From the NCBI RefSeq assembly GCF_033720595.1, contig NZ_JAWWCF010000001.1:1-56345 (forward strand): a DNA stretch of 56,345 nucleotides. The letters are read 5' to 3'. This document shows, in pieces, positions 32,936-38,032 of this stretch (the stretch's first letter is position 1; each line of letters opens with the position of its first letter). Made by a program: the position numbers and the translations under genes. The notes beneath the pieces were generated by a model, which searched no databases, was not told the DNA's origin, and worked only from the letters and a program-made list of their open reading frames with translations. This DNA comes from Lishizhenia sp. GTDB lineage: Bacteria > Bacteroidota > Bacteroidia > Flavobacteriales_D > Crocinitomicaceae.

Positions 32936-33661
32936 TTATTGTGCATAGGCCAAGGTGTAAATACTGAGGGTAATCCCGGGAACATTTTCTTTAAGAAGGA
33001 GAGCGCAAGCTTCCAAGGTAGCACCGGTGGTAAGGACATCATCTACCAATAAGATATGTTTATGGACAATTGTTTCTTCGTTTTGTAACTGAAATACCTT
33101 TGCGACATTGTCTATTCTTTCGGCCCTCGATTTTTTAGTTTGAGAACTGTTGTGTTTTCTCTTGATGAGAACATTTTCGTAAATGGGAATCTCGAGTATT
33201 TCGCTTAACCCTTGTGCAAGCAATAAACTTTGGTTGTAGCCCCTTTTGAAATGCTTTTTATTGTGTAAGGAAACGGGAATGATTCCGTCAAATGCTTCGA
33301 AATGAGGTGAAGCTTTCCATTTATGTGCCATGAGTTGCCCCATGTAAATCGCCAAGCTTTTTCCATGATTGTATTTGATTTGATGTAAAATACTTTGGGT
33401 ACTCGAATGACTTTTAAAATAGAGCAGCGACAGCACAAGATTTAAATAAACTCTTCCGTAAAAAATTTCATTGATATAAGCGTTTTTTCCTTGCTGTTCG
33501 AAGTGGGTAAATCTTAGGTTGTTATGACATTCAATGCATAAGCAATTTTGTTGAGAAGGCAGGTCTTTTTCGCATACAAAACAACGGTTTGGAAACGGAA
33601 TTGACAGGATAGCTTGACCTATTTTCGTAACTTGATAATATAGCTTATTAAATTGAGACAA
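32936..33661 (-). CDS. ComF-family protein (double zinc ribbon + phosphoribosyltransferase domain)
   Basis: CxxC...CxxC, RGYNQS, LLVDDVLTTGATL; start codon uncertain. Confidence 0.9.
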   Translation of the reverse strand: MSQFNKLYYQVTKIGQAILSIPFPNRCFVCEKDLPSQQNCLCIECHNNLRFTHFEQQGKNAYINEIFYGRVYLNLVLSLLYFKSHSSTQSILHQIKYNHGKSLAIYMGQLMAHKWKASPHFEAFDGIIPVSLHNKKHFKRGYNQSLLLAQGLSEILEIPIYENVLIKRKHNSSQTKKSRAERIDNVAKVFQLQNEETIVHKHILLVDDVLTTGATLEACALLLKENVPGITLSIYTLAYAQ

Positions 33662-33833
33662 AAGGTGGTTTTTTAGTTTAAATCTTTAAACAAGGTGATG
33701 TTGGAAAATATACTTAAAAATTTCCTAAGATTTTGATTGATAAGTCATTAATTTTATAAAAAGTTCGTCAAGATTCGGTTTTACTGGGCTTCTAAAGACA
33801 GAAAAAATTTCCAAGGAAATCAGATTGATTTTA

Positions 33834-34013
33834 TGTGAATATCTTTTGAGTTGATGTTGATAATCCGGTTTCCTTCCACAAGTCAAGGGTTTACAATCTT
33901 CAATGTGGATAAAGTTGGAAAATTGTGAATTTCTTTAATTGATTGATGTCAAAAATTTAGCAACATTTGTACACGCCTCAAATGAATGACTGATTCGAGA
34001 AATTCTTTCCACA
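33834..34013. promoter_or_regulatory. Cluster of DnaA-box-like 9-mers upstream of nrdB
   Basis: Perfect TGTGGATAA at 33904-33912; near matches TGTGAATAT 33834, TGTTGATAA 33855, CCTTCCACA 33872, TGTGAATTT 33924, CTTTCCACA 34005. Confidence 0.6.
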
Positions 34014-34109
34014 ATTTAGAGGACAAAGTAAAGTTTTAAGACGAATAAAACAGGGCAAACAAGAGTTGTTTGCTTATAGATAAATATTGCACTAAAAAAG
34101 GTTAAACAA

Positions 34110-35084
34110 ATGGCACAAAATGAACCAATTTTAGAGGAAAACAAGGACAGATTCGTTCTATTCCCAATTAAACATGACGACATTTGGTCGTTCTACAAAA
34201 AAGCTGAAGCAAGTTTTTGGACTGCTGAGGAAATCGATTTATCTCCAGACTTAATCGACTGGGAAAACAAGTTGAATGACGACGAGCGTCACTTCATCAA
34301 ACACGTGTTAGCATTCTTTGCAGCATCAGATGGGATAGTTAACGAAAATTTAGCTGAAAACTTTGTTGCTGAAGTGCAATATACAGAGGCTAAGTTTTTC
34401 TATGGTTTCCAAATTGCCATGGAGAACATCCACTCAGAAACGTATTCATTATTAATAGATACATACATAAAAGATTCTAAAGAAAAGAATCAACTGTTCA
34501 ACGCAATCGAAACAATGGATTGTGTACGTAAGAAAGCAGACTGGGCTTTGCGTTGGATAGACGAAGGGAATTTTGCTGAGCGTTTAATCGCATTTGCAGC
34601 AGTAGAGGGTATATTCTTTTCAGGATCATTTTGTTCTATCTTTTGGTTGAAGAAAAGAGGCTTAATGCCAGGATTATCTTTCTCAAATGAGTTGATCTCA
34701 AGAGATGAAGGGTTACACTGTGATTTTGCTTGTTTATTATACAACAACCACTTGAATAACAAACTTTCAACTGACACGGTTAAGAGTATCATCTTAGACG
34801 CAGTTGAAATTGAAAAAGAATTTATTCTTGAATCTCTTCCTGTTCGATTAATCGGGATGAACTCTGAATTGATGTCGCAATATATTGAGTTCGTTGCTGA
34901 TAGATTACTTGCAGAATTAGGATGTGAAAAAGTATTTAATGTATCAAATCCGTTTGATTTCATGGATATGATTTCTATCCAAGGGAAAACTAACTTCTTC
35001 GAGAAGCGAGTAGGAGAGTACCAAAAAGCAGGAGTAATGTCAGGAAATGAGGGTCAATCATTCTCTATGGATGAAGACTTTTAA
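34110..35084 (+). CDS. nrdB: Ribonucleoside-diphosphate reductase class Ia, beta subunit (eukaryote-like type)
   Basis: [29 protein letters not shown] (radical Tyr), [25 protein letters not shown]. Confidence 0.97.
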
Positions 35085-35120
35085 GAACCAATTATTGAGA
35101 AACACCAAAAACACGCGCCC

Positions 35121-37481
35121 ATGTACGTTATAAAGAGAGACGGAAGAAAAGAGCCGATTAAATTCGACAAAATTACTGCCCGTATTATTAAGCTTTGTTA
35201 TGGATTAGACCCATTAGTATCACCAGAAGGTGTAGCTATGAAGGTTATTGAAGGAATCTATGACGGGGTAACCACTACTGAATTAGATAACTTAGCGGCT
35301 GAAGTTGCAGCAGCTAAAACTATCGATCACCCAGATTATGCCTTATTAGCATCACGTATTTCTGTATCTAACTTGCACAAGAAGACGAAGAAAACCTTCT
35401 CTGAGGCAATGGAAGATTTGTACAGATACATTGATCCTAAGACAGGTGAAAACGCTGCTTTGTTAGCCGATGACGTTTACGACGTTATTATGGAAAACAA
35501 AGACAGATTAGACTCAAGTATCATTTACGATAGAGATTTCCGTTACGATTACTTCGGTTTCAAAACTTTGGAAAGATCTTACTTATTAAAGTTAAATGGT
35601 GAGATTGCTGAACGTCCTCAACACATGTTGATGCGTGTATCAGTAGGTATCCACAAACACGATATCGAAGCTGCAATCAAAACGTACAACTTGATGTCTG
35701 AAGGTTGGTTTACACATGCTACACCAACATTATTTAACGCCGGAACTCCAAAACCGCAAATGTCTTCTTGTTTCTTATTAACAATGAAAGAAGATAGCAT
35801 CAGCGGTATCTACGACACTTTACAATCATGCGCGCAAATCTCTCAAAGTGCTGGTGGAATTGGATTGGCTATTCACGATATTAGAGCAAAAGGTTCTTAT
35901 ATAAAAGGAACAAACGGTACTTCTAACGGTATTGTTCCAATGTTACGTGTGTTTAATGACACTGCACGTTATGTAGACCAAGGTGGAGGAAAACGTAAAG
36001 GTTCTTTCGCAATGTACTTGGAACCATGGCACGCAGATGTGTTTGACTTCTTAGACTTGAAGAAAAACCACGGTAAGGAAGAGCAAAGAGCAAGAGATTT
36101 ATTCTACGCACTTTGGATTCCAGACTTGTTCATGAAACGTGTAGAAGAAAACGGACAATGGACCTTAATGTGTCCTCACGAATGTCCAGGTCTTTCTGAA
36201 ACTTACGGTGATGAGTTCGAAGCACTTTACACAAAGTACGAATCAGAAGGAAAAGGAAGAAAAACAATCAAAGCACAAGATCTTTGGTTTAAGATTTTAG
36301 AATCGCAAATTGAAACAGGTACACCTTACATGTTGTACAAAGATGCTGCGAACAAGAAGTCTAACCAACAGAATTTAGGTACGATTAAGTCGTCTAACTT
36401 GTGTACTGAAATTATAGAATACACTGCACCGGATGAGGTTGCTGTATGTAACTTGGCTTCTTTGGCATTGCCGAAGTATGTTGAGGATGGGAAATTTAAC
36501 CACGATAAATTATTCGAGGTGACTTACCAAGCAGCAGTGAACTTAAATAGAATTATCGACGGAAATTACTACCCAGTACCAGAAGCTGAGAATTCTAACT
36601 TACGTCACAGACCAATTGGTTTAGGTGTTCAAGGTTTGGCAGATACGTACATTTTAATGCGTTACCCATTCGATTCTCCAGAAGCAAAACAATTGAACAA
36701 GGAGATTTTTGAAACGATTTACTACGCGGCAATGACTGCTTCTAAGGACTTGGCGAAAGTAGAAGGACCTTACCAAACAATCGAAGGTTCTCCAGTTTCA
36801 AAAGGAATTTTCCAATTCGATATGTGGGGTGTTACTCCATCAGACAGATGGGAATGGGATGTGTTGAAAGAAGAAGTAAAAGAGCACGGTGTACGTAACT
36901 CATTGTTGTTAGCACCAATGCCAACAGCTTCAACTGCACAAATCTTAGGAAACAACGAATGTTTTGAGCCATATACTTCTAACATTTACACAAGAAGAGT
37001 ATTATCAGGTGAGTTTATTATCGTAAACAAGCACTTGTTAAGAGACTTGGTAAAAGAAGGTATCTGGAACAACGAAATGCGTCAGAAATTGATGGCGTCT
37101 AATGGATCTGTTCAAAACATTTCTGAGATTCCACAAGAGTTGAAAGACCTTTACAAAACAGCTTGGGAATTGTCTCAAAAAGAGATCATCGAGCAAGCTG
37201 CAGATAGAGGAGCTTACATCTGTCAATCTCAATCGTTGAATGTATTTATGGAGAACGCTAACTTCGGTAAGTTAACTTCTATGCACTTCTTCGGATGGAA
37301 ACAAGGATTGAAAACAGGAATGTACTACTTGAGAACGAAAGCAGCTACGGATGCAATTAAGTTTACAGTAGACAAAACAATAACAGCTGACAAAGTAGTA
37401 GCTAAAACGGAAGAAGAAAGACAAGCAGAAATCGCATGTTCTTTAGATGATCCGGATAACTGCGAAATGTGTTCAGGATGA
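35121..37481 (+). CDS. nrdA: Ribonucleoside-diphosphate reductase class Ia, alpha subunit with ATP cone
   Basis: VIKRDG ATP cone, SSCFL, SNLCTEI, VCNLAS, PMPTAST, TGMYYLR, C-terminal CEMC. Confidence 0.97.
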
Positions 37482-37568
37482 TACGTTAGCATCCAGGACG
37501 CATTCGGCGAAGCCACTTGTGTTTAGGATGATACGTTAGCGTCGAGAACACTTGCGTTTAAGATGATA
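37468..37568 (+). repeat. Tandem degenerate hairpin repeats starting inside the nrdA 3' end
   Basis: TGTGTTCAGGATGATACGTTAGC (37468), TGTGTTTAGGATGATACGTTAGC (37518), TGCGTTTAAGATGATA (37553). Confidence 0.8.
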
Positions 37569-37576
37569 TCTGAGGA

Positions 37577-37691
37577 AAATGATAGGGTCGCTATCATGAG
37601 AATGAGCGGCATAACTCAAACTTGTGAGACCCAGTCATTTGAACAATACTGCGTATAGGTTAATAATTGTGCCGTTTTTATAAACCACGCA
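37577..37691 (+). ncRNA. Candidate structured RNA (3-way junction + hairpin + 7-bp pseudoknot), family not recognised
   Basis: Hand-folded pairings listed in the findings; G.U wobbles favour the plus strand; a terminator follows immediately. Confidence 0.5.
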
Positions 37692-37695
37692 ATGC

Positions 37696-37725
37696 AAACG
37701 CCCCATATTTTTGGGGCGTTTTTTT
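37696..37725 (+). terminator. Intrinsic terminator of the nrdBA transcript
   Basis: AAACGCCCCA-TATTTT-TGGGGCGTTTTTTT. Confidence 0.85.
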
Positions 37726-37774
37726 GTTCCATTAATTCATCTTCTATACTCCCTCCTCCTTCGCTAAACTTTTT

Positions 37775-37919
37775 TTGGCAAACTGCCGTGCCATCCATTT
37801 TAGTCCCTTCCTTTTCCCTAAGTCGCACAAAACCGCAAAACCACTTCCGCTGGTCGTGGCTTTTTACTTGTGCTTACTAAGGCAAACTTTCAGGGCGCTG
37901 CCATTGCTGTCACTGTTTG
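37775..37919 (-). repeat. Structured ~145-nt dispersed element, copy E
   Basis: Minus strand GTGACAGCAATGGCAG...GACCAGCGGAA...CTAAAATGGATGGCAC; closest to copy B. Confidence 0.85.
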
Positions 37920-38032
37920 ATATGGACCACATGAAATATTTTAAAAGAGAAACAACCTTAGGCTTTTAGAACGTATAAATTCGTTGAGAATAGTGCTTTT
38001 GTTTTAGTATTTTTGAGGAAAATCAGAACCAA

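Follow-up and report, generated by a model that had tools for sequence, protein, structure and literature searches.

The 3' end of the nrdB-nrdA operon of Lishizhenia sp. (family Crocinitomicaceae) raises the question of what a long stretch of structured RNA does between the last codons of a ribonucleotide reductase gene and the operon terminator. It had been read from the letters of one genome as a compact pseudoknotted RNA built of four helices (P1 to P4). We analyzed which of these parts is conserved, to which sequence its loop is complementary and how the remaining layers of the region are related to it.

The window is the whole stretch of 56,345 bp that was analyzed (contig NZ_JAWWCF010000001.1). 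G000 denotes the genome to which it belongs, G002 one relative that shares the rod hairpin described below, and other G numbers further genomes. The labels g5, g6, g18, g19, g20, g21 and g29 refer to genera and L numbers to individual loci.

Setting of the operon and its 3' UTR

The features of the region are listed in Table 1. On the plus strand no terminator-like site was found between 33600 and 37696, and a single one follows nrdB and nrdA; the terminator that had been placed behind P4 was confirmed. Judged by this sequence layout, P4 is part of the operon's 3' UTR and has the same terminator. The region 37570-37760 folded more stably than shuffled versions of itself (z -5.2). A reading as promoter was dropped, as matches to promoter consensus sequences were no more frequent than expected by chance. 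TAnnTTTG is a promoter motif of Bacteroidota; it was present neither near the 3' end nor upstream of nrdB.

Table 1. Features of the nrdB-nrdA operon and its 3' end (window coordinates)
Feature	Position	Strand	Basis or remark
nrdB, small subunit of ribonucleotide reductase; leading gene of the pair	34110..35084	+	ORF; PF00268
Predicted target AAATGGCACAA over the nrdB start codon	34108..34118	+	pairs with the whole P4 loop
nrdA, large subunit with ATP cone, 36 nt downstream of nrdB	35121..37481	+	ORF; PF02867, PF00317, PF03477
Cassette 1, 50 nt	37467..37516	+	repeat D1; fold
Cassette 2, 35 nt, a reduced and diverged version of cassette 1	37517..37551	+	82% identity over 39 nt
Older end of nrdA, displaced and decayed; the working end in G002	37552..37576	+	alignment with G002
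Rod hairpin, unbranched (formerly P1-P3)	37577..37640	+	-22.3 kcal/mol, z -4.5; window and G002 only
Apical loop of the rod, CGGCAUAA; similar to the nrdB start, predicted kissing partner of the P4 loop and likely decoy	37607..37614	+	8 of 8 pairs in window and G002
P4 hairpin, conserved after nrdA in the family	37650..37691	+	5' arm formed by last nrdA codons and stop in some genera
P4 loop UUGUGCCGUUU, predicted antisense seed	37667..37677	+
Intrinsic terminator, 10-bp stem and U run	37696..37725	+	terminator-like site in sequence

Named records with the same 3' motif after nrdA were mostly assigned to Fluviicola, Brumimicrobium, Lishizhenia or Crocinitomicaceae. NrdR was found in none of 61 genomes of the family, and Hfq (PF17209) was not found in G000, a genome that is 95% complete. 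An Rfam search yielded no match at gathering score in the window, as the original prediction had supposed, or in eight relative loci; by E-value only weak, terminator-driven matches appeared. The 3' UTR behind nrdA is a real structured RNA, probably functional and tied to ribonucleotide reductase. To this extent the earlier view of a structured 3' UTR element or sRNA is supported, while its extension to a compact riboswitch or ribozyme is not.

Past the terminator, at about 37748-37950, the window carries a separate repeated element. It has five more matches in G000, and its neighbours in the sequencing runs vary between strains.

P4 is the conserved unit

Comparison of sequences identifies P4, and not P1-P3, as the conserved unit. 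A covariance model of the hairpin matched 24 of 151 evenly sampled genomes of the family at E<0.001, distributed over nine genera with one match per genome, and none of 128 genomes from other families of the order. The 15-nt P4 core was found exactly after 57 of 145 distinct nrdA ends, a collection enriched for the core since many of the ends were fetched using its pattern. Among the scored ends there were 13 in which P4 overlaps the stop codon of nrdA; in other genera a variable spacer lies in between. Of 58 P4 loci that were examined for a partner upstream, 56 had no rod.

The arms of P4 co-vary. When they were swapped between ten arm groups, own arms reached -9.3 kcal/mol vs -6.0 kcal/mol for swapped ones (permutation p 0.00015), with kin among the groups that are not fully independent. 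RNAalifold gave no consensus for 37 P4 sequences because the register of the stem shifts between them.

Further matches to the P4 pattern were considered separately. Viral contigs contained 17, and the 90 nt upstream of each did not resemble an nrdA end. Among 94 genome matches, the 41 without nrdA look like chance. Two loci, L078 (titled Glaciecola amylolytica) and L106 (Akkermansia sp.), carry a Crocinitomicaceae-type nrdA end together with P4; perhaps the titles are wrong or the assemblies mixed.

Other conserved, clade-specific motifs immediately precede the nrdA terminator in g5 (L147, L152, L156, L157, L170) and in a second family (L350, L352, L358, L364, L366). These are candidates for other seeds; the g5 motif matched neither the start of nrdB nor that of nrdA in three genomes. 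With the query used for nrdA ends, this NrdA C-terminus was not found in several near-complete genomes of g6 (G008, G081, G098, G128, G156, G169, G228, G234) and g21 (G072, G091, G108), which may use another class of reductase.

The P4 loop is complementary to the nrdB start

The P4 loop and the nrdB start can form a duplex of 11 bp. Ten of its pairs are Watson-Crick, and the eleventh is a G.U at the U of AUG. This was the best duplex of the loop in a scan of 33661-37481; the partner lies 3.5 kb upstream of the loop. With -14.6 kcal/mol nrdB ranked joint third among 2467 start regions of G000, and its target site is predicted to be unpaired (P 0.76-0.99).

The nrdB starts of 60 relatives were fetched. 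Pairing at or below -12 kcal/mol was predicted for 24 of 30 genomes with P4, G000 included, vs 4 of 30 without (G024 not scored); after the covariance model had placed G165 among the P4-bearing genomes the counts were 25 of 31 vs 3 of 29. In the even sample of 151 genomes the start pattern accompanied 19 of 24 strong model matches vs 16 of the 127 others, not every pattern match being confirmed as nrdB. Within genus g19 the start ATGGCACAA was present in all nine genomes with P4 vs one of six without; in g29 the P4-bearing genome has the start and the genome without P4 lacks it. A second possible register, AAAACGG upstream of AUG, was found in 9 of 35 genomes with P4 vs 0 of 29 without.

Several natural variants keep the pairing. 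In G165 the G.U opposite the U of AUG is replaced by A-U, in G068 a C-G by U.G, and G031 and G062 have CAG for CAA with the pairing retained by wobble. G137 combines one two-sided change with kept pairing; it is the sole two-sided case, most variants being one-sided.

Nine of the 16 start-bearing genomes without a strong model match were then fetched. All five g18 genomes with a readable nrdA end, fetched because the start was present, carry GUGCCA(UUU), the seed in its Watson-Crick form, in another hairpin before the terminator; in three g18 genomes this seed is predicted to be partly paired. The g18 nrdA 3' ends L468-L472 also show an NrdA C-terminus that differs from the usual one. A diverged P4 was seen in two g20 genomes. 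G086 has no seed, the start match of G142 is not nrdB, and the contig of G135 stops early.

Over 75 genomes, 15 of them added after selection, seed and start occurred together in 36, neither in 26, the seed only in 9 and the start only in 4. The nine among 45 seed-bearing genomes without the ATGGCACA start are all Fluviicola-type. Three or four of these recover about 11 bp in a shifted register; G259 (-8.1 kcal/mol) and G130 (-4.9 kcal/mol) have no recovered pairing, yet their loop is unchanged. The start was present in 4 of 30 seedless genomes. Additionally, G252 has a variant loop that is uncompensated (-6.2 kcal/mol), pairing is weak in G090 (-9.0 kcal/mol), and pairs are lost at AUG in G107 and G151. 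A tree-aware test of independent pairs found three pairs (p 0.5) on a poorly resolved NrdB tree; Fisher values overstate the association of seed and start because the tree left only these three.

What the sequences give directly is a complementarity of 11 nt, which accompanies P4 from genome to genome and is kept in several variants. The reading we favour, with moderate confidence, is that the P4 loop pairs with the nrdB start and represses its translation, and that the upstream hairpin of this lineage, predicted to kiss the loop, would act as a decoy.

An improbable alternative, and the one that survives best, is that the loop serves as a signal for protein binding, processing or stability and matches nrdB incidentally. 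The constancy of the loop in Fluviicola-type genomes with poor nrdB pairing suits this explanation, as do the flanking bases of the loop, which are nearly invariant although they lie outside the paired region, and the small number of independent pairs in the tree-aware test. The same holds for the start itself: ATG GCA is common and occurs in about half of the genomes without P4. An incidental match leaves, however, the rank of nrdB among the start regions of G000 unaccounted for, and likewise the wobble-compatible variants, the two-sided change in G137 and the Watson-Crick seed in the different hairpin of g18.

Slightly less probable again is a trans-acting small RNA, consisting of P4 and the terminator, with a wider regulon in which nrdB would be one target of several. 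Other starts in G000 pair equally well or better, among them that of a small gene on contig C3 which is conserved in G002. Exact 14-nt complements were located just past the stops of a helicase-like gene (G000 and G002) and of two other genes (G001 and G003; G073), and additional targets would explain the constant loop of the Fluviicola-type genomes. On the other hand, about 154 matches with one mismatch in 21 genomes vs about 125 in the control are no clear enrichment, and most of the inspected exact matches away from nrdA were coding and differed between genomes. A dispersed DNA site or a large target regulon was rejected on the same lack of clear genome-wide enrichment.

The exact complements of the 14-nt P4 core (G000 C164:6106-6119 and C3:8084-8097; L283, L284, L285, L288 and L295) stand just past the stops of three genes and immediately upstream of a small gene's start. 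They are possible further targets or sponges.

Stacked cassettes at the end of nrdA

In the window two cassettes separate the coding part of nrdA from an older gene end. Cassette 1 starts with the working last codons and stop of nrdA, which are paired with an inner mirror copy, and continues with a GGC-GAA-GCC mini-hairpin. A contig of sequencing run X4 is short of one 50-nt unit, contigs of X2 and X3 carry the array, and X1 may be the source of the window; the number of units varies within the species. Both units are missing from G002.

Extra copies of the gene-end motif were present at 42 of 140 nrdA ends of the family and absent from reversed and complemented controls; in a second family 6 of 24 correctly anchored ends had them. 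Among 57 downstream anchors 47 read Cys-Ser-Gly-stop, and 19 of these differ silently from the working end. In 20 of 26 cases the working end gave the first unit the better fold. The architecture, a gene end paired to an inner mirror copy with a small hairpin last, recurs in related units across genera and families. Examples of nrdA ends with such stacked cassettes, which are gene-less, are L013, L107, L157, L160, L161, L239 and L358. Of the 2658 ORFs of G000, nrdA alone shows the pattern clearly.

We regard the cassettes at 37467-37551 as a separate and younger layer. They are likely small mobile hairpin elements, each supplying nrdA with a new end and shifting the previous ones downstream. 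We infer insertion by a single-strand nuclease or a transposase; template switching may be an alternative origin. The cassettes provide a well-sampled case of unexplained DNA insertion at the end of an essential gene.

Short extragenic tandem hairpins with flanking DNA are also known from REP/BIME elements and their TnpA-REP transposases (PMC3733652, PMC6006769, PMC8266576). The cassettes differ from REPs, which have a GTAG/CGTC foot and many dispersed copies: they have no GTAG foot, are confined to the single nrdA locus in G000 and include a silently altered copy of the gene end. A search for Y1 transposases gave no match in G000; matches occurred in 166 of 251 genomes of the family, and the best 12 of these loci were without the cassette hairpin motif. 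Separately, the Fluviicola-type spacers L040, L042, L044, L053 and L065 contain double-foot GTAG...CTAC REP palindromes between the nrdA stop and P4, and such palindromes also occur in some terminators.

A second likeness concerns Ssn nucleases and their SRM repeats (PMC11893778). Small single-domain GIY-YIG genes of the family are often flanked by GA-mismatch hairpin repeats with short loops, which resemble one class of cassette hairpin. The published SRM pattern was found in none of 25 such GIY-YIG loci and in none of 63 cassettes, and the nrdA cassettes resemble the repeats by hairpin form alone. G000 also holds a dispersed family of GA-mismatch hairpin repeats, with 29 exact copies of a 12-mer. 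Single-domain GIY-YIG genes (G000 C223:3052-3195, L323-L346) are often flanked by such a repeat or by a sister repeat, an Ssn-like layout which escapes the published SRM pattern.

These structures bear on a further explanation, which we consider very unlikely, namely that the region acts mainly as a structure on the nrdA stop codon and stalls ribosomes. REPs within 15 nt of a stop codon have been reported to stall ribosomes, including E. coli nrdAB (cited in PMC12306157). Opening the last 12 coding bases and the stop costs 10.6 kcal/mol in the window, with medians of 7.2 kcal/mol for 49 cassette ends and 5.1 kcal/mol for 13 ends overlapped by P4, compared to 1.6 kcal/mol for 1726 genes of G000. 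However, nrdA ends with neither feature still score 4.0 kcal/mol, P4 is far from the stop in most genomes, and neither the loop sequence nor its match to nrdB is explained. A structural effect at the stop codon could be additional to an antisense action of P4.

The upstream hairpin and its predicted contact with the P4 loop

P1 was present where it had been predicted (7 bp including one G.U, plus 5 bp). The folding of P2 and P3 on top of it as a three-way junction was not confirmed and is disfavoured by energy: the junction reaches -14.8 kcal/mol with an ensemble probability of about 2e-6, 7.5 kcal/mol worse than the unbranched rod. In G002 the rod was calculated at -19.9 kcal/mol vs -6.6 to -12.2 kcal/mol for the junction. 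The GNRA loop assigned to P2 is not conserved (GAGA in the window, AGGC in G002), and an alternative 7-bp hairpin, mutually exclusive with P1 and P2, exists in the window and loses pairs in G002.

The rods of the window and G002 differ by 12 changes in 64 nt, none of which falls into the 37 nt of P1 and the kissing strand; at four-fold sites of nrdA 33 of 175 positions differ (0.19). In the upper helix of the rod we found one two-sided change, two one-sided changes and three pairs that are open in one of the two genomes. As the short P2 likewise shows one two-sided change, covariation between the two genomes fits both folds, and the rod is preferred because of its energy. No rod was detected elsewhere, whether in a DNA search of 61 genomes, in a pattern scan of metagenomes or in the rest of G000.

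The hammerhead consensus core consists of CUGANGA and GAAA around three stems. A hammerhead-like core was rejected, as the window has CUGAGGA but GAAC and both elements are broken in G002.

The predicted pseudoknot between 37608-14 and 37667-73 is available as a 7-bp pairing. We prefer to describe it as a contact between two loops; it comprises 8 bp (37607-14 with 37667-74) and could grow to 11 bp if the top of the rod opens. In 3000 shuffles the probability of such a contact by chance was 0.0007 within the 90 nt upstream and 0.016 across the whole spacer. The strand in the rod loop is identical in the window and G002 and thus offers no variation. An upstream loop partner at p<=0.05 was found in only 4 of 58 P4 loci, with strong partners restricted to the window and G002. 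Complements in cis, mostly unpaired, were seen in 2-3 of 16 P4 clusters compared to 0.13-0.48 expected from shuffled loops (p 0.01-0.04), at thresholds set after the data were seen. A metagenome scan for partner plus loop pattern returned four matches, all unrelated.

The duplex of the rod loop with the P4 loop is predicted at -10.6 kcal/mol, vs -14.6 kcal/mol for the P4 loop with nrdB. The rod is likely a decoy in this model, being the weaker binder, as a releasable decoy would be. The decoy step is weaker than the step from seed to target; it is based on two genomes and an invariant loop strand.

The least credible explanation is a single compact, pseudoknotted fold of P1-P4 that would be riboswitch-like, a ribozyme or a nuclease block, since the real loop contact in the sequence, the rod conserved in two species and the two-sided change in the short P2 are set against the energy deficit of the junction, 56 P4 loci without a rod, a location 3' of the operon with no downstream platform, the missing Rfam match and the hammerhead-like core broken in G002.

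Comparison with known regulatory RNAs

With the antisense reading of the P4 loop preferred, the closest known systems are found among 3' UTR-derived regulators. CarZ and OppZ are autoregulatory 3' UTR sRNAs of Vibrio cholerae (PMC7398697). Like CarZ, P4 lies at the 3' end of a two-gene operon of nucleotide metabolism, before the terminator, and is complementary to the start region of the first gene of its operon (carA in the case of CarZ). CarZ is excised by RNase E, binds Hfq and has been validated (PMC7398697). For P4, in contrast, no Hfq (PF17209) was found in G000, the predicted seed is a hairpin loop directed to AUG and codons 2-3, and a decoy hairpin in cis is predicted. A conserved seed against the start of the own operon is found in both, here with the Fluviicola-type exceptions; natural variants that bear on compensation comprise one two-sided change (G137) and one uncompensated loop (G252). 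The P4 element most likely works as an autoregulatory antisense RNA, but is not filed here as a member of the CarZ family.

In icaR of Staphylococcus aureus, too, a motif in the 3' UTR base-pairs with the start region of its own mRNA, and initiation is prevented (PMC3868564, PMC7821165). There, a single gene with an anti-Shine-Dalgarno motif is involved and the duplex is cleaved by RNase III. In contrast, pairing of P4 would have to cross 3.5 kb and two cistrons, and its partner is not a Shine-Dalgarno sequence but the start codon itself with codons 2-3, preceded by an A-rich leader. Two reviews (PMC9438474, PMC7821165) mention neither nrd genes nor Bacteroidota in their accessible text. In the mostly open literature no report of the P4 element or of the repeats was found; supplementary sRNA catalogues could list it.

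Proposed mechanism and its implications

In the proposed mechanism nrdB, nrdA and P4 would be carried by one transcript. The loop would pair over the AUG of nrdB, either by folding back of the mRNA or through a separate fragment. By the second route, a fragment of about 75 nt comprising P4 and the terminator would outlast the mRNA and act on new transcripts; because of the analogy with CarZ this route appears more likely than fold-back. The small subunit would thereby come under negative feedback, in bacteria in which the search for NrdR gave no match.

If P4 overlaps the stop codon of nrdA, the seed would be covered by the terminating ribosome. Where P4 has been displaced by inserted DNA, as in the window, a target mimic in cis would hold the seed, and cleavage in the A-rich linker (37641-49) would free it.

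A more far-reaching version is speculative, and we regard it as doubtful. Accordingly worded, an Hfq-independent circuit might set the balance of NrdB to NrdA in Bacteroidota without NrdR by translational coupling that runs backwards: ribosomes finishing nrdA would hide the anti-nrdB loop, and where mobile hairpin cassettes displaced the loop, target mimics might have evolved repeatedly, here as a kissing hairpin, to gate it.

To our knowledge, the control of ribonucleotide reductase without NrdR is not settled for the phylum Bacteroidota. If the proposed mechanism is true, the control of this enzyme in one family would be explained by an 11-nt loop aimed at the start codon of nrdB. Autoregulation by a 3' UTR would then reach a housekeeping operon on the chromosome, in a genome that gave no match to Hfq, and the region suggests a seed that would be gated by its own decoy.
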